Origin: a virus
Lineage: Duplodnaviria; Caudoviricetes
Strand: one strand, 5' to 3'
DNA: 64,000 bases
IMG/VR virus record: IMGVR_UViG_3300033068_001747
The position numbers and the translations under genes were made by a program. Shown here in pieces: positions 2,754 to 29,560 of the stretch. The notes under the pieces were generated by a model, which saw nothing but the letters and a program-made list of their open reading frames with translations, was not told the origin of the DNA and did no database searches. How positions within the stretch are numbered: position 1 is the stretch's first letter; each line of letters begins with the position of its first letter.

Positions 2754-3239
2754 ATGATTTATTTAAAAACTTTTGAAAAATATTCGGTTACTGAAGCAAA
2801 TTTTAAAGATAAGCTTTACAATGCAAGTACCATTATAACTGGAAAGCCAATGACTTGGGAAATAAACAAAGAAAAAAATGAAAGACTTACTAGAGAAGTT
2901 GCACAAATTCTTATAGATAGAGGATATAATCTAAATGAAGAAGGTGGAACTATGACAGATGGTTCAGAAATTTGGTCACTTCAAGATCAAGGAATGCAAC
3001 CAATTGTCTTTAAAGCCAAACCTGATTACTATGATAAAAGCATATTACAAATTGTAGTTAGTTTTTATTTCCCAAACAGAGAACATAGTGGTGAAAGTGA
3101 AATAATTGATATAGATGAAAATGACTTAGAAAGAACTGCAGATAAAGTATCAGAAGTTCTTGAAAGACTTAGAGCATTAGGTCATAGAGGTAATACATTT
3201 AGTAAACAAGGTAGTATTAAACTTCGACTTGAAGACTAA
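2754..3239 (+). CDS. Hypothetical protein with N-terminal motif MIYLKTFE
   Basis: ORF track; TAATATATA upstream. Confidence 0.7.
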   Translation: MIYLKTFEKYSVTEANFKDKLYNASTIITGKPMTWEINKEKNERLTREVAQILIDRGYNLNEEGGTMTDGSEIWSLQDQGMQPIVFKAKPDYYDKSILQIVVSFYFPNREHSGESEIIDIDENDLERTADKVSEVLERLRALGHRGNTFSKQGSIKLRLED

Positions 3240-4690: not shown

Positions 4691-4857
4691 ATTCTTTTTA
4701 TTTTTTCTCTTCGTTTATTTTTTCTCATATTTTTCTTAGCTAACTTCTTTAATCTATAAGCCATAACATGATAAGACGATAATGTTTCATCATCTAAATA
4801 TGTTTTATCACCTATCAGATCAAGATGATCAATTATTACTGGTTTATATTCTTTCAT
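4660..4857 (-). CDS. Small hypothetical protein
   Basis: ORF track; overlapping operon context. Confidence 0.5.
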   Translation of the reverse strand: MKEYKPVIIDHLDLIGDKTYLDDETLSSYHVMAYRLKKLAKKNMRKNKRREKIKRICLKDLSYEL

Positions 4858-5300
4858 TTGAATAAATCTTTTATTATAAAATCTCTTTTAATACTTAATG
4901 GTAATAAGTTTATAATTTGTTTTTTACTAACTATCTTAGCGGCTGTACCAAAACTACCATTAAAGTTATATAATTCGGTTAAATCATTTCTCAATGAGAA
5001 TCCATATGCAGTTTTCTTAGTTTTATTAAAATTATCTTGTAAATAAACCTTATCAACTACATTATTTCTAACCATAATCCAAATTATATATTGTTCATTA
5101 AATACCAATTTCCAATGTGAATCTTGTTTTGGATGTATTTTTTTTTCTTTTACCTGAACATACCTACCTGTTTTATTATCAATTACATGCTTAGTAGTAT
5201 GATCATCCAGTATCATAGCTTCTCCATCATTATATGGATTTGGCTTATGAAAAGGTATTTTAGTAAATCCTAACTCTCGTAACTTTTTAGTTGCATTCAT
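4854..5300 (-). CDS. Hypothetical protein, C-terminal tag KRDFIIKDLF
   Basis: ORF track. Confidence 0.65.
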   Translation of the reverse strand: MNATKKLRELGFTKIPFHKPNPYNDGEAMILDDHTTKHVIDNKTGRYVQVKEKKIHPKQDSHWKLVFNEQYIIWIMVRNNVVDKVYLQDNFNKTKKTAYGFSLRNDLTELYNFNGSFGTAAKIVSKKQIINLLPLSIKRDFIIKDLFK

Positions 5301-6153: not shown

Positions 6154-7083
6154 ATGGAAAAAGTTAAATGTATTATTATAGGATCAGGACCTGCAGGGTA
6201 TACCGCCGCAATTTATGCAGCAAGAGCAAATATGAAACCTGTTTTATATCAAGGGATGCAACCTGGTGGACAACTAACAACAACTAATGAAGTTGAAAAT
6301 TATCCTGGATTTCCAAATGGAATAACAGGACCAGAAATGATGCAACAATTTGAGGAACAAGCTAAACGATTTGGAACAGATATAAGAGATGGTTTTGTAA
6401 CTAAAGTAGATTTTAGTGGAGACATTAAAAAAGTCTTTGTAAACGAAAAAGAAATACATTGTGATACTGTTATCATATCTACAGGAGCCACTGCTAAGTA
6501 CTTAGGATTAGAATCAGAACAAAAATACCTTACTTTAGGTGGAGGTGTTAGTGCTTGTGCTATTTGTGATGGATTCTTTTACAAAGGTTTAGATGTAGTT
6601 GTAGTTGGAGCAGGGGATTCTGCTTGTGAAGAAGCTCACTACTTATCAAAAATCTGTAATAAAGTAACTATGTTAGTAAGAAGTGATTTTAGAGCTTCTA
6701 AGATTATGGTTGATAGAGTTAGAAATACTGAGAATATAGAAATACTTTTAAATACTGAAACTATAGAAGTTTGTGGTGACGGTCAAGTAGTAAATAAAAT
6801 CATTGTTAAGAATAGTAAAACTGAAGAAGTATCTGAAATACCTGCAGCTGGATTCTTTTTAGCGATTGGTCATAAACCAAACACAGATATATTTAAAGAT
6901 TATTTAAAATTAGATTCTGTTGGATATATTGTTACTGAACCAGGAAGTACAAAAACAAATGTAGCAGGAGTATTTGCGGCAGGTGATGTTGCGGATCATG
7001 TTTATAGACAAGCTATTACTGCTGCAGGAACAGGTTGTATGGCCGCTTTAGATGCAGAAAGATACTTAGCAAGTTTGGAATAG
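6154..7083 (+). CDS. trxB: Thioredoxin-disulfide reductase
   Basis: GSGPAGYTAAIY, GGQLTTT, CAIC redox motif, GAGDSA, FAAGDV. Confidence 0.97.
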   Translation: MEKVKCIIIGSGPAGYTAAIYAARANMKPVLYQGMQPGGQLTTTNEVENYPGFPNGITGPEMMQQFEEQAKRFGTDIRDGFVTKVDFSGDIKKVFVNEKEIHCDTVIISTGATAKYLGLESEQKYLTLGGGVSACAICDGFFYKGLDVVVVGAGDSACEEAHYLSKICNKVTMLVRSDFRASKIMVDRVRNTENIEILLNTETIEVCGDGQVVNKIIVKNSKTEEVSEIPAAGFFLAIGHKPNTDIFKDYLKLDSVGYIVTEPGSTKTNVAGVFAAGDVADHVYRQAITAAGTGCMAALDAERYLASLE

Positions 7084-7087
7084 TAAA

Positions 7088-7537
7088 ATATATTTTGTAA
7101 TTTTACATAAAGGCTCGTTCGCACCCATGCACATAGGCCACTTAAATATAATTGAAAAAGCTGAAAGAATTTTCGGTAAAGGAAATGTTATAGTTGCAAT
7201 TGGAGTAAATCCCGATAAAAACTATTTAGAAAGACAAGATCCAAAAGAACTTGAAAAGACTATAAATCGTCCTGTTATTACTTATGCTAAGTTTCTACAC
7301 GAACTTGTAGAAGATTATGAGAAAGAAGGTTTAAAAGTAGTTATAATCAGAGGATTAAGAAATGGTACTGATTTAGATTATGAAGTAAATCAATTTAGAT
7401 TTATAAACGACTTTAAGAAAGATATAAACGTAGTTTATATTACTTGTGACCAAGAATTTGAACATATTTCTTCTTCTGCAATTAGAAAGATTGAACAATT
7501 TGGTGGACCAGATATGGTAAAAAAATATCTTTTATAA
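7088..7537 (+). CDS. coaD: Phosphopantetheine adenylyltransferase-like protein (start uncertain)
   Basis: GSFAPMHIGH, IIRGLRNGTDLDYE, HISSSAIR; the GSF motif lies upstream of the first ATG (7127). Confidence 0.7.
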   Translation: MYFVILHKGSFAPMHIGHLNIIEKAERIFGKGNVIVAIGVNPDKNYLERQDPKELEKTINRPVITYAKFLHELVEDYEKEGLKVVIIRGLRNGTDLDYEVNQFRFINDFKKDINVVYITCDQEFEHISSSAIRKIEQFGGPDMVKKYLL

Positions 7538-9303: not shown

Positions 9304-10560
9304 ATGAATGATAATTATAAATACGTAACTGTTATGTTTCCCTACCCTTCTGGTAGTGGATTGCATTGTGGACACTGGTACAATTATGCAATTATAGATA
9401 GTTACTGTAGATACTTGAGATATAAAGGTGAACAAGTTTTTCAACCATTTGGTTATGACTCATTTGGTTTACCTGCAGAAAACTACGCGAAAAAAGTGGG
9501 TAGAGACCCACGAGAAGTTACTTACGAAAATATAGAAAACTTTAGAGGACAGATGAAAAACATGGACACTCAATATGAGGAAATGTTGATTACTTCTGAT
9601 CCTAACTACATTGAATACACACAATGGTTGTTTAAACAATTGTATGATAAAGGATTGGCTTATAAAAAAGATGGTGAAGTTGACTTTTGTAATAGTTGTG
9701 AAACCGTATTGGCTAGAGAACAAGTAAAAGATGGTAAATGTGATAGATGTTCAAATGAAGTTGAAAAGAAAACATTGAACCAATGGTATTTTAAAATCAC
9801 TGATTATAAAGAAAGATTGATTGCAGGTTTGGACCATATAGATTTCCCTGAATCTACCAAGAAAGCTCAAAGAAATTGGTTGGAAAACCAACATGATTGG
9901 TGTGTATCAAGACAAAGAAGTTGGGGTTGTCCAATTCCAATTGAAGGAGAAACTGATACAATGGACACTTTTGTAGATAGTTCTATTTATACTATAATCT
10001 ATTGTATTATGAAAGGTATTAAACCTAAACCAGTTGACTTGTATGTTGGTGGTTCTGAACATGCTTGTATGCACTTGATCTATATTAGATTTATTACTAT
10101 GTTCTTGCATGACATTGGGTTTATTGACTTTGAAGAACCAATTACTAAATTGGTACATCAAGGTATGATTTTGAACCAAGGTGAGAAAATGTCTAAATCT
10201 AAAGATAATGTAGTTAGTTTGGATGGTTATGATTCTGATGAAATTAGATTTTATTTGATGTTTATTGGACATTACTTCGATGGTGGTTCTTGGTCAGATG
10301 AAAATATAATTGGTATTAGAAGATTTATAAATAGAATGAAAACTTGGTTGGATAAAACAGGTGAGGAAACTATTGATATAGAAGCTTTCAAAAAAACTAT
10401 ATTTGATTTTACAGATGCGTTTAAGTTTAACAAAGTAGTGAGTTCATTTATGATTTTGTTGAACCAAAATAAAAATAAAGCATTGACTCCAGAATGTAAA
10501 GAAGAATTGATTAAATTGATTGAGATCTATATGCCTGGTATTAGAGGAAAATTAAACTAA
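9304..10560 (+). CDS. leuS: Miniature leucyl-tRNA synthetase-like protein lacking the CP1 editing domain
   Basis: MFPYPSGSGLHCGH, GYDSFGLPAEN, zinc knuckle, QWYFKIT, DWCVSRQRSWGCPIP, DTMDTFVDSS, KMSKS; 418 aa. Confidence 0.85.
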   Translation: MNDNYKYVTVMFPYPSGSGLHCGHWYNYAIIDSYCRYLRYKGEQVFQPFGYDSFGLPAENYAKKVGRDPREVTYENIENFRGQMKNMDTQYEEMLITSDPNYIEYTQWLFKQLYDKGLAYKKDGEVDFCNSCETVLAREQVKDGKCDRCSNEVEKKTLNQWYFKITDYKERLIAGLDHIDFPESTKKAQRNWLENQHDWCVSRQRSWGCPIPIEGETDTMDTFVDSSIYTIIYCIMKGIKPKPVDLYVGGSEHACMHLIYIRFITMFLHDIGFIDFEEPITKLVHQGMILNQGEKMSKSKDNVVSLDGYDSDEIRFYLMFIGHYFDGGSWSDENIIGIRRFINRMKTWLDKTGEETIDIEAFKKTIFDFTDAFKFNKVVSSFMILLNQNKNKALTPECKEELIKLIEIYMPGIRGKLN

Positions 10561-11669: not shown

Positions 11670-11705
11670 AAATTAGTTGTATCTTTGTACAACAATAAAA
11701 GAAAA

Positions 11706-11784
11706 GGTCCTTCAACGTAATTGCCTTGGTGGCAAGCTGGCTTCTAAACCCAGCGTTAAACGGGTTCGAATCCTGGTGGGATCA
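11706..11784 (+). tRNA. Atypical tRNA, apparent anticodon CUA (amber suppressor-like)
   Basis: Acceptor GGTCCT/GGGATC + A; D hairpin TTGCC-TTGGT-GGCAA; GCTGG/CCAGC stem closing C-TTCTAAA-C; GGTTCGAATCC T arm; TATCTTTG promoter element upstream. Confidence 0.7.
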
Positions 11785-11796
11785 CAAAAAAGTATT

Positions 11797-12000
11797 ATGC
11801 AGTTAAATAAAAAAGATAAAGTAATTCTGAATTGTGACGAATCTGATTTTGAGAATCAAGAAAATAGAAGAAATTGTATAAATAGAATTGTTACAGTACG
11901 TGATATATTTTATAGAGGAAATAAAATTGATACATTTTTTGTAGAAGAAAATGATTATGAATGGGTTCCAGAAAATATAGTAGTTAAAGTAAAATGTTAA
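11797..12000 (+). CDS. Small hypothetical protein
   Basis: ATG downstream of the tRNA; the longer ORF call overlaps the tRNA. Confidence 0.55.
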   Translation: MQLNKKDKVILNCDESDFENQENRRNCINRIVTVRDIFYRGNKIDTFFVEENDYEWVPENIVVKVKC

Positions 12001-12182
12001 ATTGGATTAAAAAATTATTTACAAAACCTTCTAAAAAAAGACTTATTGACGATTATGAATTTAACTCAATTAGAAAAGAAAAAGAAGATGAATTAAATAG
12101 AATTTTAGATAAAATATCTGAAAAGGGTATTAAGAGTTTAACAAAAAAAGAAAAAGATTTTTTAAACAGTAACAAAAAATAA
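11994..12182 (+). CDS. DUF6576-like small protein
   Basis: ELNRILDKISEKGIKSLTKKEKDFL motif. Confidence 0.7.
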   Translation: MLNWIKKLFTKPSKKRLIDDYEFNSIRKEKEDELNRILDKISEKGIKSLTKKEKDFLNSNKK

Positions 12183-12205
12183 TATATAAATAAAAACAAG
12201 TAATT

Positions 12206-13126
12206 ATGAAAGCAACTTAGATTAACAAAGAAGAATCAAAATTAGTAGTTATCACAAGAAGTGATTTAACTCCTGGCTACCAAGCCCAACAATCTACACA
12301 CTCTGTAGCAGACTTTTCACACGAGTTTCCTCAACAATTTAAAGAATGGAAAACTACATCTAATTCTATCATCTGTTTACAAGTAAACAATGAAAAAGAA
12401 TTAAACGACTTATACATAAAGTTATCCAAACTTACCTCAGTCACAAAATTTTACGAACCAGATTTAAACGATGAACTTACATCTATTTGTTTATATGCAA
12501 ATAAAGATGTCAGAAAGAAAGTTTCATATCTTCCACTTTTAGGTAAAAAACCAAAACTTACTTATCAACAAGTTATCATTGATATGATAGCAACACCACA
12601 AACTGATACACAAAATGTATTAGAACACGGTATATCTGTTGCAAAACACTTTGATAAACTAATTAAAGGAGAAACCGATAACTGGAAATTACCAACTTGG
12701 CTTACAGAAAATAAAGATTTTATCTTTAGTAACCTTCACAAACTAGAAGATATTAAAGAATATCAAGTAATGCACGATTGTGGTAAACCATACTGCATGA
12801 CCATTGATGAACAAGGTAAAAGACACTTTCCAAATCACGCACAAGTTTCATTTGACACATTCTCTAAGATTTCTGACAACAAAGTAGTTGCAGATTTAAT
12901 CTTAAAAGATATGGTATTCCATACAATCAAAGCAAATGAAGTAGAAGATTTTGTTAAAAGTAATTCAATCGAAACCGTTTTAACATTATTAGTAACAGCA
13001 CTTTGCGAATTACACTCTAATACTTCTATGTTTGGTGGTATTGAAAGTACTTCTTTTAAAATCAAATTTAAACAATTAGATAAAAGAGGTAACCAAGTAT
13101 TAAAACTATTAAAAAATAAACAGTAA
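12206..13126 (+). CDS. Peptidyl-tRNA hydrolase 2 (PTH2)-like domain fused to HD domain; in-frame TAG at codon 5
   Basis: ATG AAA GCA ACT TAG, then an open frame LVVITRSDLTPGYQAQQSTHS...FYEPDLNDELTSICL continuous with the 12584 ORF (HDCGKP). Confidence 0.8.
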
Positions 13127-13128
13127 TT

Positions 13129-13491
13129 ATGACAACAAAAGAATTTATAAAAATGTTACAAGATGCAGATCCTACTGGAGAATCACACGTAAGAATGTAT
13201 GGTGGTGTACCAATAGGTGCCGCAAGAATACCTGGGTATTATGATGGAAATTATGCTTATATTGATGAAAATGATAATTATGTATCTACTATGAAAGGAG
13301 ATAAAGTAGATATTTATTGTAGAGATTCATTTGATATTATATCAGATAATTATGATGATGATAAAACAAAAGAAGAAAATTGGGAAATTATAAAAAGTAA
13401 ATTTATATTTGATTTAGGAGAAGGTGTAACCCATAAAGAAAAAATATTTATGGATAGAGTTTATAAAGAATTTGAAGAATATATAAAATAA
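13129..13491 (+). CDS. Hypothetical protein
   Basis: ORF track. Confidence 0.65.
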   Translation: MTTKEFIKMLQDADPTGESHVRMYGGVPIGAARIPGYYDGNYAYIDENDNYVSTMKGDKVDIYCRDSFDIISDNYDDDKTKEENWEIIKSKFIFDLGEGVTHKEKIFMDRVYKEFEEYIK

Positions 13492-13533: not shown

Positions 13534-14124
13534 ATGGCGAACGCACCTATTACACCGAAAGAAAAATTAGCTTGGGAATTTGCCCAAAGAGCACATAAAG
13601 ATCAAGTAAGAAAATTTACTGGTCTACCATATTTTGATAATCACGTACAAAAAGTAAATGGTACATTAAAACTTTACACTACTGATGAAGCAACTTTAAT
13701 TGCTGCTTTATTACACGATGTTATCGAAGATTGTTATGAAAATAAATGGGAAGCTTACAATGATATTAAAGAACTTTTTGGTCAAGAGGTTGCAGACTTA
13801 GTTATGGAGCTAACTTCTGATAATGAAGAAATGAAACATAAATGGGGTGGTAATAAAACAAACTACTTAATCAACAAAATGTTGAAAATGTCTGACAAAG
13901 CGTTTACTATTAAACTATCTGATAGATTCAATAACATTGCAGATGCATTCACTGCATCCGAAAGATTTAGAAATAACTATTACAGAGAAACTTGTGCAAT
14001 AGTCGATGCAATGGAAGAAGGTAGAACTTTTACAAGAGTTCAAAGACAATTACTTGATGATATTCAAGCAAAACTTGATAACATCAAAAGAATATTTAAA
14101 GTGAAAAAATTAAACGAAATGTAA
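13534..14124 (+). CDS. Small alarmone hydrolase, (p)ppGpp HD-domain (SpoT/Mesh1-like)
   Basis: AHKDQVRK...PY...H, AALLHDVIED, IKLSDRFNN. Confidence 0.85.
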   Translation: MANAPITPKEKLAWEFAQRAHKDQVRKFTGLPYFDNHVQKVNGTLKLYTTDEATLIAALLHDVIEDCYENKWEAYNDIKELFGQEVADLVMELTSDNEEMKHKWGGNKTNYLINKMLKMSDKAFTIKLSDRFNNIADAFTASERFRNNYYRETCAIVDAMEEGRTFTRVQRQLLDDIQAKLDNIKRIFKVKKLNEM

Positions 14125-27268: not shown

Positions 27269-27355
27269 GGGAAGATATACAAGTCTGGTCAAAGTAGGCT
27301 ACCGGTGAGGTAGTCGGTTTTATATCTTCGAGCGGTTCGAATCCCTCTCTTCCCA
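27269..27355 (+). tRNA. Atypical tRNA with long variable region and non-canonical anticodon loop
   Basis: GGGAAGA/TCTTCCC + A; GGCTACC-GGTGA-GGTAGTC arm; GGTTCGAATCC. Confidence 0.65.
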
Positions 27356-27535
27356 CAAAAAAAATTTTAAAAAAGATTTGGTAGATTAAAGAATACTCCT
27401 TATCTTTGTCAAACAAAATACGAGTTATGAGTTGTGGCTCGAAGATTAAACCAAAACTCAAAAAAAATTAAAAAAAGTTAAAAAAGATTTGGTAGATTAA
27501 AAAAGTCTTCTTATCTTTGTCAAACAAAATAAAAA

Positions 27536-27619
27536 TGTGTGTTACCGGAGTTATGAGTTAGAATACAACTTGTAAGTATAGACGGGCTGCTGATGAAGTT
27601 GGTCCGCTCCCTAACCACA
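27536..27619 (+). ncRNA. Candidate structured small RNA
   Basis: After a promoter repeat; TGTG..GTTA..GGAG / CTCC.TAAC.CACA closing helix with internal hairpins. Confidence 0.45.
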
Positions 27620-27627
27620 AAAAATCT

Positions 27628-27738
27628 GGTCTGTTCGTCTAGCGGATGTCACTTCGGTGATAGGACGACACTTCTACGCTTAAATGTGCCCTGGTATATG
27701 GAGAGGTGTAAACAAAGGTTCGAATCCTTTACAGACTA
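27628..27738 (+). tRNA. tRNA-Glu-like RNA copy 1 (D-loop hairpin, 26-nt anticodon-loop expansion)
   Basis: GGTCTGT/ACAGACT acceptor; TCAC-TTCG-GTGA in D-loop; ACACTTCT/AGAGGTGT stem. Confidence 0.75.
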
Positions 27739-27858
27739 CAAAAAAAAATGAAAAAAGATTTGGTAGATTAAAAAAGTCTTCGTATCTTTGTCAAACAAAA
27801 TAAGAGTAGGTGTCTTGTGAAATTCTTGACTTCTTGGTGTACGATAGCACAACTCTTC

Positions 27859-27945
27859 GGTCTGTTCGTCTAGCGGTGTCACTTCGGTGACTAGGACAAC
27901 TTCCCTTTCAGGAAGGAAACGCGGGTTCGAATCCCGTACAGACTA
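27859..27945 (+). tRNA. tRNA-Glu-like RNA copy 2 (UUC in a 6-nt loop)
   Basis: Same body; CTTCC-CTTTCA-GGAAG anticodon arm. Confidence 0.8.
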
Positions 27946-28007
27946 CTGCTTTAATGGAATTTTAAGCTTGAGTTTTGTGATGGAACTCTTTAAAGAACTA
28001 TCACATC

Positions 28008-28096
28008 GGTCTGTTCGTCTAGCGGTTCACTTCGGTGATAGGACAACTTTTCAGTGAGTGATGAAGTAAACGCGGGTTCGAATCCCGTACAGACTA
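28008..28096 (+). tRNA. tRNA-Glu-like RNA copy 3 (extended anticodon arm, loop GTGAG)
   Basis: Same body; ACTTTTCA-GTGAG-TGATGAAGT arm. Confidence 0.75.
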
Positions 28097-28161
28097 CAAA
28101 TAAAATATAGGTGGTTACACGCCAGTAATGGTGTGTGTATCAAAGAGGTAAGCCACTTATC

Positions 28162-28249
28162 GGTCTGTTCGTCTAGCGGATGTCACTTCGGTGACTAGGA
28201 CATCTTCTCTTCGGAGTTGGGAACGCAGGTTCGAATCCTGTACAGACTA
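28162..28249 (+). tRNA. tRNA-Glu-like RNA copy 4 (anticodon loop replaced by a cUUCGg tetraloop)
   Basis: Same body; CTC-TTCG-GAG. Confidence 0.75.
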
Positions 28250-28266
28250 CAACAAATAAAACATAT

Positions 28267-28339
28267 CGCGGGATAGAGCAGTAGGCAGCTCGCAAGGCTC
28301 ATAACCTTGAGGTCACAGGTTCGAGTCCTGTTCCCGCTA
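28267..28339 (+). tRNA. tRNA-fMet (CAU)
   Basis: C1:U72 mismatch, CAAGG-CTCATAA-CCTTG, canonical D and T arms. Confidence 0.9.
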
Positions 28340-28421
28340 CTAAGTGTAAATGTCATTCTGTAATGTTGACAAGTTGGTACTTTTAGTATCCATCTTTAGT
28401 GTAATTAAAACACGACACTTC

Positions 28422-28534
28422 GGTCTGTTCGTCTAGTGGACGTTTACTGAACACAAAGCTTCGGCATTAAAGTAAAGTAAACAGGACTTCTCCCTTAGAA
28501 GGAGACAACGCGGGTTCGAATCCCGTACAGACTA
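28422..28534 (+). tRNA. tRNA-Glu-like RNA copy 5 with UAG (Leu) anticodon and ~40-nt D-loop insertion
   Basis: Same acceptor and T arm; TCTCC-CTTAGAA-GGAGA; GTTTACT...AGTAAAC inserted helix. Confidence 0.75.
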
Positions 28535-28554
28535 CAATGCTTGGTCGCCAGGTA

Positions 28555-28720: not shown

Positions 28721-29560
28721 ATTGTATTATCCAACTAGTCACTTCGGTGGTTAGTAAAATGATAATCGGCGGTGTATCGTCGTTAAATAAACTACGAAAG
28801 TAGGATAAAGTGGAATCAACGTTAAATGGTTCTGCGGCTCGTAAGAGCTCGAGTACACAAGTGGGATATCCAACGTCCTGATTAACCGAGGGCTTACGCT
28901 GTAGGTGAAATGGAATTTGGACTTGGCAATGTGGATTGTCGAGTTGATGTGGGAACACCAATAAGAATAACCCATAGGAACTCTGTAAGAAAGGTAGCTC
29001 CAACTATCTGATTGCGGGTTCCAATATAAAAGGCAACTTAAAACCGAAAGGTAAGGTAGAGAACAGGTGGTGCTGCTACTATCCCTACTAAATGTCTACC
29101 AAGACGTTAGTTTGAAGTTTTCTTGAAGTATGGAGGCTGGGAGGCTTCACGAAGGAGTTTAGTATTTCGTTGTTCAAAAGATAACGAAGCTTACGACAGA
29201 CCACTTCTTCGACACATCCACGAACACAAAAGCAATTTACATTTGAAGTAAAATTTAAACATAAAAAGCGAAAGTGTCTGTCAGGTTTCAACGAAAGTTG
29301 ACTACATACTTAGGAGCTGTTCCTAGGACGTCAAGACCGCAAGTTAAGACGTATTCTTGCCAAAAACCTCTAAGGGGTCGAACCCTTAATCAGACCGCAA
29401 GTTTGAAGAGAGTTGAGTAATAAGAGAGTAGTTGAAACCTCAAGAAGTGATTAGTCTAACTAATCGTCAATGAGAATTACAATCCAAAAGATTGTGGATA
29501 CGAAGAGAAACAATAATTCTTCAAAAGATTCTTACAAGATGGCATAATCTCAGCCTATTA
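28720..29560 (+). ncRNA. Large (~850 nt) structured ncRNA, GOLLD-like candidate
   Basis: Raised GC; no credible ORF; many GNRA/UUCG-capped hairpins; follows a tRNA cluster and boxA; terminator after. Confidence 0.65.

Follow-up and report, generated by a model that had tools for sequence, protein, structure and literature searches.

A gene for a two-domain enzyme that opens with an in-frame amber stop codon, and a tRNA-like element with the matching CUA anticodon upstream of it, were analysed in a 64-kb stretch of phage DNA (64,000 nt, hereafter the window) from the IMG/VR record IMGVR_UViG_3300033068_001747 (Duplodnaviria; Caudoviricetes). The enzyme is probably made only when the CUA tRNA of the phage overrides the UAG, that is, by suppressor-dependent translation. 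The stop lies within the first codons of the gene in nearly all homologous loci, canonical start codons are absent behind it, its type matches the anticodon of a neighbouring tRNA, its 3' context is of the kind that favours suppression, and the frame beyond it encodes two recognizable folds. In the proposed mechanism, ribosomes would start at ATG 12206 and meet the UAG after four codons, where the tRNA encoded at 11706-11785, probably carried on the transcript of the same promoter, would insert an amino acid and let elongation continue. The read-through product would be a 306-amino-acid protein combining a Pth2-like ester hydrolase domain with an HD phosphohydrolase domain like that of CCA-adding enzymes; tRNA 3' ends are plausible targets of both domains. 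Were release factor 1 to win at the UAG, only a tetrapeptide would result. The gene would thus be locked by a stop codon to which a tRNA of the same module is the key, and its output would track the activity of that tRNA relative to termination. From the sequences we infer that the tRNA is made, CCA-ended and charged and that it decodes UAG; the amino acid inserted, the substrate of the enzyme and the reason for the gate are approached in the same way. The gate may serve in feedback on the suppressor itself, or it may couple the enzyme supply to expression of the phage tRNA. A first-pass annotation of the window had proposed a translational switch that opens when peptidyl-tRNA accumulates or release factor 1 is limiting; a suppressor-dependent gate remains the best reading of the locus, while nothing in this analysis supported the rationale built on peptidyl-tRNA or release factor 1.

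On the + strand the sequence from 12206 onward is ATG AAA GCA ACT TAG ATT. A leader of ATG and three sense codons (Met-Lys-Ala-Thr, 12206-12217) is followed by the in-frame TAG (12218-12220) and then by A, the first base of ATT 12221. Behind the TAG the frame stays open up to the TAA at 13124-13126. The listing of open reading frames (ORFs) places the first in-frame ATG, GTG or TTG at 12584, which leaves 121 sense codons without a canonical start. Direct reading thus bore out the earlier description of the ATG-to-TAG leader at 12206-12220 and of the 121 ATG-less codons, and translation gave the 306 amino acids that had been claimed for the read-through product; a protein begun at the ATT would have 301.

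Homologous loci were gathered from phage GenBank records, IMG/VR and JGI/ENA metagenomes, and the upstream DNA was read for each. A gate was defined as a start codon, zero to eight sense codons and a stop directly ahead of the PTH2-like core. Such a gate is present in 95 of the 103 distinct homologous loci, as TAG in 93 and TAA in 2, so that the early in-frame stop, whose conservation the first-pass annotation had proposed to check, is indeed kept in homologues (L048, L140 and L142 are gated too, though they fall outside the script filter). No ATG, GTG or TTG occurs between stop and core in 84 of the 95 gated loci. The most frequent leader has a single sense codon (45 loci), followed by leaders of two codons (24 loci), and the TAG always stands at the extreme 5' end, never within the domain. 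The closest relatives of the window alter the leader and keep the TAG (AAA AAC ACT in L004 and AAG AAC ACT in L008).

Gates are also carried by cultured phages, whose hosts are Tenacibaculum, Ralstonia, Xanthomonas and Mycobacterium smegmatis. Phage pT24 (L001) has ATG AAA TAG ATA, and its annotated gene BPT24_235 begins 42 codons late. RsoM2USA (L048) has ATG TTG TAG ATT, and its Pth2-like frame (L048 542-908) is unannotated. In XacN1 (L047) ORF364 has ATG AAG TAG ACC, and its annotated start lies four codons after the ATG AAG TAG leader. Myrna, ScoobyDoobyDoo and HyRo have GTG or ATG, then TAG, then GTG. A mistake in sequencing or assembly, or a nonsense mutation acquired recently by this genome alone, could account for the bare presence of a stop and for nothing else; the same stop recurs in 95 of 103 distinct loci, which come from independent samples, six cultured phages have it too, and the closest relatives differ in leader codons yet retain the TAG. 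Because the early stop is conserved, both error and recent mutation are excluded with a probability close to certainty.

In a second alternative, only the HD domain would be made, from ATG 12584, and the PTH2-like part would be a decaying remnant cut by a nonsense mutation. Gene callers do report exactly the ORF from 12584, and stand-alone HD proteins of the same family exist. The 121-codon region, however, is free of stops, retains 33-93% identity over about 100 loci and has invariant R, D, G, Q, Q, H, W and P columns, the structural model described below is confident throughout, and the TAG lies at the very 5' end in every case, all of which makes decay of this region very improbable.

The gate stop has a distinctive 3' neighbour. 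In 77 loci this base is A and in 18 it is G; no gate stop precedes C or T. For comparison, the 37 ordinary TAG stops of these loci precede T 18 times, G 8 times, C 6 times and A 5 times, and seven of the eight ordinary TAG stops in the window precede T. A purine after UAG favours suppression in Escherichia coli. The gate also follows the two protein families. In most loci the Pth2-like and HD parts are neighbours or are fused, with either of them first, and the window has one gate for both. Where the HD gene is separate (L002, L005, L007, L010 and L034) it has its own start, one to seven codons and a TAG, and the nine codons between this TAG and the first ATG encode a conserved helix belonging to the domain. 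A blind scan of all loci for an ATG, at most eight codons, a stop and a long frame lacking an early start returned 44 TAG, 17 TAA and 6 TGA cases, and nearly all of the 44 TAG cases were members of the Pth2-like and HD families. These comparisons indicate that the gate belongs to the module and is specific to these two families.

The stop was next compared with the anticodons of neighbouring tRNAs. Of 52 well-flanked loci with a TAG gate, 34 have a CUA tRNA no more than 3 kb away, in every case encoded on the strand of the gene; over all stop types, the fetched DNA includes a cognate tRNA for 35 of the 53 gate loci flanked by 1.5 kb or more on each side. In most loci outside the clade of the window ARAGORN calls such a CUA tRNA, as it does in pT24 and in all three mycobacteriophages. 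Two loci depart from amber in both partners: L038 has an early TAA gate with a UUA tRNA (positions 2992 and 4794-4868), and L046 has an in-frame TGA before a reversed HD/Pth2-like fusion, with a UCA tRNA (positions 377-452 and 824). L138 combines a TAG gate with a UUA tRNA, a compatible pair, since amber codons too can be read by ochre suppressors through wobble. The homologues with a normal start (L015, L023, L030 and L120) had no suppressor tRNA in the fetched DNA, and scanning the complete records of L015, L023 and L030 by pattern gave none. Neither of the huge phages LR745206 and LR756502 has a CUA tRNA near the gate, and each carries an odd CUA tRNA elsewhere in its genome. Taken together, these distributions support a genetic tie between the TAG and a tRNA with the CUA anticodon.

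Several observations weigh against suppression as the route to the protein. A suppressor tRNA is missing within 3 kb in 18 of the 53 well-flanked gate loci, the TAA/UUA and TGA/UCA matches are one locus each, and the TGA of L046 is directly followed by a GTG and an ATG. Eight of the 67 window genes end in TAG, so that an efficient suppressor would carry a cost. The tRNA of the window is non-canonical, with a long linker, a 9-nt anticodon loop and no encoded CCA, and may lack charging or acceptance by the ribosome. The stop is followed in about 80% of loci by ATT, ATA, ATC or GTG, all usable as start codons, and reinitiation or direct initiation there could therefore give nearly the same protein without the tRNA. 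Applied to the window, this would mean a mini-ORF with reinitiation at the adjacent ATT 12221, or a direct ATT start, and a 301-amino-acid protein independent of the suppressor; the link to the tRNA would then be indirect, for example through a gene sited among tRNA genes. The very short leader, with its mode of one sense codon, suits a restart, and in three mycobacteriophages the Shine-Dalgarno sequence is spaced for the GTG after the TAG, which is the annotated start, and not for the start codon that precedes it.

Initiation behind the stop nevertheless leaves unexplained why TAG is used in 93 of 95 gates when TAA is the usual stop of these AT-rich genomes, why the stop type tracks the neighbouring anticodon (CUA, UUA or UCA), and why the homologues with a normal start are the ones without suppressor tRNAs. 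About one fifth of the gates are followed by non-start codons (GTA, GTT, ACA, ACT, AGC, AAA, AAC or GGT), several of which (ACA, ACT, AGC, AAA, AAC and GGT) are unable to start translation, and in some gates with one of these last six codons no start-like codon occurs ahead of the first beta strand. In RsoM2USA, XacN1, L033, L034 and L037, moreover, the Shine-Dalgarno sequence is spaced for the upstream ATG. Reinitiation or a start at ATT 12221, an outcome that the first-pass annotation had named as refuting its proposal, is accordingly regarded as the main but unlikely alternative, and suppressor-dependent translation as the preferred account.

The partner of the gate in the window is an element at 11706-11785 (+ strand), a non-canonical tRNA with the anticodon CUA (CTA at 11744-11746), which ends 421 bases ahead of ATG 12206. 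Its 5' half consists of an acceptor stem of 7-8 bp, a linker of 8-9 nt and a 5-bp D-like hairpin. The anticodon arm has a 5-bp stem and a 9-nt loop, CUUCUAAAC (or a loop of 7 nt closed by a C-C mismatch), that reads ..UU CUA AA.., with U33 before the CUA and a purine (A) at position 37. The 3' half has a 4-bp T stem, a canonical T loop (GTTCGAAT) and a discriminator A, and the CCA is not encoded. A standard D arm (2-nt link, 3-4 bp stem, loop of 8-11 nt) and a standard 7-nt anticodon loop were not found in this element. ARAGORN made no tRNA call at 11706-11785, and Rfam gave nothing at the gathering score for the same positions, its best match being tRNA-Sec (18.2 bits versus 47, E-value 0.24). 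Identification of the element as a tRNA rests on a covariance model of our own, R1, made from 22 phage suppressor tRNAs, together with covariation. R1 scored the element at 29.7 bits (E-value 6e-7). The same odd shape occurs in L010, L013, L019, L043/L044, LR745206, LR756502 and several metagenome loci. In the acceptor, anticodon and T stems of seven homologues 96.4% of cells are paired and 10 of 16 pairs are changed on both sides, a result to which none of 500 shuffles and no slid register comes close. The D-like hairpin was checked by folding each sequence separately, because MAFFT gave no single register for it, and it folds in all seven homologues with differing sequences (5-7 bp, loop of 3-5 nt). 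The earlier claim of a CUA-presenting tRNA about 420 bp upstream of the gene is thereby upheld, and the element is best classed, on its conserved pairing, as a member of a conserved class of non-canonical tRNAs. At the corresponding place L004 and L008 have a different CUA tRNA-like element that lacks a D arm. As regards amino-acid identity, no isoacceptor was consistently the nearest when the suppressor tRNAs were compared pairwise with 110 other phage tRNAs; several of them were closest to short CAA or UAA tRNAs.

A promoter-like motif ending in TAnnTTTG lies 17 bases ahead of the tRNA (11673-11689, + strand). The 17-mer, with at most three mismatches, is also found just upstream of the gene starts at 251, 46939 and 48431, giving five matches in the window versus 1.2 expected, and L004 and L008 retain the motif ahead of their own tRNA-like element. 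TAnnTTTG is the -7 box of Bacteroidota, and 11673-11689 presumably functions as a promoter; the recurrence of the motif suggests that transcription beginning at the tRNA continues into the gated gene.

A gene for a small leucyl-tRNA-synthetase-like protein at 9304-10560 (+ strand) was considered as a dedicated charger of this tRNA. The protein has 418 amino acids, about half of the 843-position LeuRS model, matches NCBIfam leuS_bact with 369 bits in three pieces (cut-off 548) and is 70-92% identical in relatives. Close relatives and LR745206 have the gene; LR756502 and the complete 430-kb genome from which L013 derives lack it in spite of having the odd tRNA. The candidate was dropped because gene and tRNA are not co-distributed.

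Other tRNA-related observations were made in the gated loci. Gene 86 of Myrna (L039), labelled 'tRNA-Ser', has the anticodon CUA, and the CUA tRNA of HyRo (L041 3602-3675) is unannotated. Phage pT24 has two 80-nt genes annotated 'tRNA-Undet' (L001 408-487 and 775-854) with an extended anticodon arm, which ARAGORN calls as tRNA-Ile (UAU) with the anticodon at position 37. The Pth2-like gene of L028 has no in-frame start; the sole nearby ATG opens ATG AAG CGG ATC TAA, one base out of frame. The loop of the adjacent tRNA (2885-2962; site 2885-3010) is UUUCCGA, in which UCCG is complementary to CGGA, and reading CGGA as one four-base codon would give exact entry into the Pth2-like frame. L028 is therefore a possible quadruplet-codon gate, seen as a single case. 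A tRNA with a four-base anticodon is called by ARAGORN at L025 4186-4259, and a short frame, ATG AAA AAT ATG TAG ATC, lies just after it at L025 4270-4310. In the two huge phages a conserved hairpin with arms CCTCCTTAA and TTAAGGAGG (L002 2868-2950 and L003 2880-2965) separates the gated Pth2-like gene from a gene resembling those of class II aminoacyl-tRNA synthetases; this hairpin could be a terminator or a structured leader.

The window as a whole is phage-like, AT-rich (29% G+C) and densely coding under the standard code (table 11). Among public sequences it is closest to two uncultured huge phages, LR745206 (635 kb) and LR756502 (642 kb), with Tenacibaculum phage pT24 at a greater distance. 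Among 67 long ORFs the stop is TAA in 54, TAG in 8 and TGA in 5, in agreement with the first-pass annotation, which had noted that other genes still end in TAG. Under reassignment of TAG across the genome or in blocks (code 15), as in Lak and crAss-like phages, the gated gene would be merely one among many with a reassigned codon; related huge phages carry suppressor tRNAs, and recoded phages are known (bioRxiv 10.1101/2021.08.26.457843; PMC9523058). Code-15 genomes have in-frame TAG in many genes and avoid TAG as a stop; in the window, table-11 coding is dense, eight of 67 ORFs end in TAG and read-through is required by no gene of the 64 kb apart from the gated one. Judged from these 64 kb, the genome uses the standard code without general recoding, and reassignment is highly improbable as the explanation. 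A second candidate amber gate, a cytidylyltransferase-like frame after the TAG at 7067, was rejected: its homologues, including the close relative L078, open with a plain ATG and have no early stop. That frame has no canonical start before its HxGH motif, and an in-frame ATG lies five codons upstream. The corresponding gene (7070-7537, + strand), which contains no ATG, GTG or TTG before the HxGH motif, may start at ATA or ATT in this copy or may have suffered damage at its 5' end.

The protein encoded behind the gate was modelled from the ATT-started frame (301 residues) using an alignment of 66 homologues. The AlphaFold model is confident throughout, with a mean predicted local distance difference test score of 96.9 and a predicted template modelling (TM) score of 0.83. 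Residues 1-108 of this model (12221-12544, + strand) form the PTH2-like domain. Against Pfam PTH2 (PF01981) the N-terminal part scored 24.6 bits, with a cut-off of 23 and coverage of profile positions 2-75 of 115 only, and a profile of the domain found solved Pth2 chains in the PDB (E-value 1e-6). Foldseek matched residues 1-108 to MJ0051, PH1539, human Bit1, AF2095 and Sulfolobus Pth2 with TM scores of 0.68-0.78, and VIA aligned 105 residues with 1wn2 (Z 14.4, root-mean-square deviation 2.1). In PHROGs the domain belongs to phrog_1866, annotated as function unknown. The lysine of the Pth2 G-K motif, before the Q..H helix, is catalytic in Sulfolobus Pth2. In HMMER alignments to 24bt, 2zv3 and 1wn2 it aligns with the tyrosine of PGYQ, and tyrosine is the majority residue at this position in an alignment of 25 homologues; the Q..H and EPD..T motifs are retained. 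NCBIfam arch_pth2 scored 21.5 bits against a cut-off of 82. Because the G-K lysine is replaced by tyrosine and the equivalog score is far below its cut-off, the domain is assigned to a distinct Pth2-like subfamily. XacN1 and RsoM2USA carry a separate, canonical and normally started PTH2 (111-115 bits) beside the gated subfamily. The initial assumption of a bulk peptidyl-tRNA hydrolase was not supported, in view of the lysine-to-tyrosine replacement and of the canonical PTH2 in phages that carry the gated gene.

The HD-superfamily domain (residues 112-301) occupies 12554-13126 (+ strand), through the TAA stop, and was assigned from structural matches and conserved motifs. Its best VIA match was the C-terminal half of a class II tRNA nucleotidyltransferase (3wfo_A 249-447; Z 14.8, 160 residues), followed by the HD region of the GlyRS beta subunit (Z 10.7) and by PhnZ, PPX/GppA, PgpH and YhaM (Z 8-10). 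Insofar as helical domains can reach a high Z by arrangement alone, the HD motif was given as much weight as the Z values. The motifs HG, HDCGKP, HFPxH and DMxxH are the majority consensus of 66 sequences and are present in the window translation. Pfam HD (PF01966) did not match the window protein, and the homologues P0002 and P0063 reached 17-18 bits against a cut-off of 22. The family comprises 464 cluster representatives and corresponds to phrog_14850, annotated as function unknown. Of the profile searches suggested in the first-pass annotation, that for PTH2 was borderline, as for a divergent subfamily, and that for HD fell below threshold. The model, the structural matches and the HD motifs together make 'PTH2-HD fusion' a fair description of the predicted product. 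Both domains resemble enzymes that act on tRNA 3' ends, and by analogy they may have the same role here.

Two small genes lie between the tRNA and the gated gene on the + strand. An ORF of 67 amino acids (11797-12000), to which profile searches assigned no family, is missing from L004 and L008 and is probably outside the mechanism. A DUF6576 protein of 62 amino acids (11994-12182; Pfam PF20216, 47.2 bits), encoded directly upstream of the gated gene, is kept at this position in L004 and L008 only. A TAATATATA element that had been noted ahead of the gate is present as a string at 12181-12189, where it overlaps the stop of this preceding gene; its role as a signal was unsupported, and no support was found for the string as a promoter. 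Downstream, a 120-amino-acid ORF (13129-13491) adjoins the module in L004, L013, L014, L016 and L025 as well. It stands between the gated gene and a gene for a small HD hydrolase of the RelA/SpoT type (13534-14124, + strand; Pfam HD_4, 63 bits), the second gene after the gated one, whose product is probably a (p)ppGpp or alarmone hydrolase.

Farther away in the window, a full-length GOLLD RNA at 29150-29556 (+ strand; Rfam RF02032, 324 bits, E-value 5e-92) lies a short distance downstream from a group of clustered tRNA and tRNA-like genes. Within 27269-28535 (+ strand) are six tRNA-like elements that were missed by ARAGORN and Rfam and scored 13.7-37.8 bits with our own tRNA model; they adjoin a tRNA-Met at 28267. 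Four of them (27859-27946, 28008-28097, 28162-28250 and 28463-28535) have a near-identical T arm and 3' acceptor strand, and the first three of these also have the 5' acceptor strand in common, with insertions of 13-26 nt in the D or anticodon region. These elements could be intron-bearing or degenerate tRNA copies.

A bolder interpretation, which is considered doubtful, is that the module is a self-contained translational homeostat with interchangeable lock and key, and an example of a general class of natural tRNA-operated gene switches. The enzyme would act on the 3' end of the suppressor tRNA, by deacylation, peptide release or end trimming or healing, while its own synthesis would need that tRNA, and the resulting feedback would hold read-through at a set level while TAG stays a stop. 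The lock could be amber, ochre or opal, and in L028 perhaps the four-base codon CGGA.

The suppressor tRNAs of jumbo phages with a normal code had no known purpose, and the present comparison names a specific, conserved candidate client for them, namely one or two genes for tRNA-end enzymes with an early stop that matches the suppressor anticodon. If suppression is indeed the mechanism, the module would be a natural counterpart of the amber gates of synthetic biology, a new viral way of tying gene output to the phage's own tRNA supply or to the state of termination, and a source of odd-shaped tRNAs that are possibly orthogonal to host enzymes. For annotation, it means that gene callers truncate or miss gated genes and that tRNA finders miss the odd tRNAs. 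Cultured phages of Tenacibaculum, Ralstonia, Xanthomonas and Mycobacterium smegmatis share the layout, which makes it accessible to laboratory work already. No published account of an early stop in phage Pth2-like genes was found in the full-text literature, a search whose coverage leaves out most subscription journals; a comparative study of jumbo phages notes PTH2 genes and makes no mention of the stop (PMC7824862).

Parts of this arrangement have parallels in known systems. The feature would be an instance of stop-codon recoding by a phage suppressor tRNA, here confined to particular genes, located at their 5' ends and paired with a linked tRNA of matching anticodon. The gene for release factor 2, prfB, is autoregulated through an early in-frame UGA and a +1 frameshift and senses its own product. 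Like prfB, the gated gene is translation-related and meets a stop early in its frame, and its output would depend on competition with termination; unlike in prfB, the stop would be passed in frame, the partner is a separately encoded tRNA, and feedback is hypothetical. In selenocysteine and pyrrolysine decoding, and with tRNA-Sec and 'allo-tRNA', a dedicated tRNA of odd shape reads a stop in particular genes. The window tRNA resembles tRNA-Sec, its best Rfam match, in having a long D-type stem with a loop of 4-5 nt and a 4-bp T stem, and differs from it in lacking a long variable arm and in its anticodon, which is CUA and not UCA. Unlike the selenocysteine and pyrrolysine systems, most relatives appear to use ordinary-looking tRNAs for the same job, and the TAG of the window comes 12 bases after the start. 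Neither a SECIS- or PYLIS-like element nor a special factor was seen, though no search aimed at them was made. The bar minigenes of phage lambda are free-standing ORFs of two to four codons that are linked in function to host Pth, since they shed peptidyl-tRNA, and that harm Pth-deficient hosts. The gate leader is likewise a very short ORF ending in a stop, whereas here the mini-ORF is in frame with the Pth2-like gene and abuts it.

Further parallels come from phages with suppressor tRNAs. In Lak phages, crAss-like phages and others, TAG is recoded as glutamine, and the presumed role of this recoding is the timing of gene expression (bioRxiv 10.1101/2021.08.26.457843, PMC9523058, PMC13037316). 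These code-15 phages pair a CUA tRNA with in-frame TAG, as is seen here. In the present loci, by contrast, the code is standard and TAG is still an ordinary stop, a single gene (two where the domains are separate) from the same two families has the TAG in its first few codons, and the type of stop changes together with the neighbouring anticodon. CUA suppressor tRNAs were previously reported in the normal-code phages XacN1 (PMC5852040) and RsoM2USA (PMC8504454). For XacN1, 18 amber stops were read through and no target was found (PMC5852040); for RsoM2USA, 'several potential genes' were guessed as targets (PMC8504454). These orphan jumbo-phage suppressors are the same tRNAs as those near the gates, and candidate targets can now be named for them: XacN1 ORF364 and the unannotated frame of RsoM2USA. 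Engineered amber gates, such as a suppressor-tRNA feed-forward loop in E. coli (PMC7969014), follow the same logic, in that the amber codon of a target gene permits expression solely in the presence of a suppressor tRNA; those are man-made, whereas the gate described here would be natural and widely conserved.

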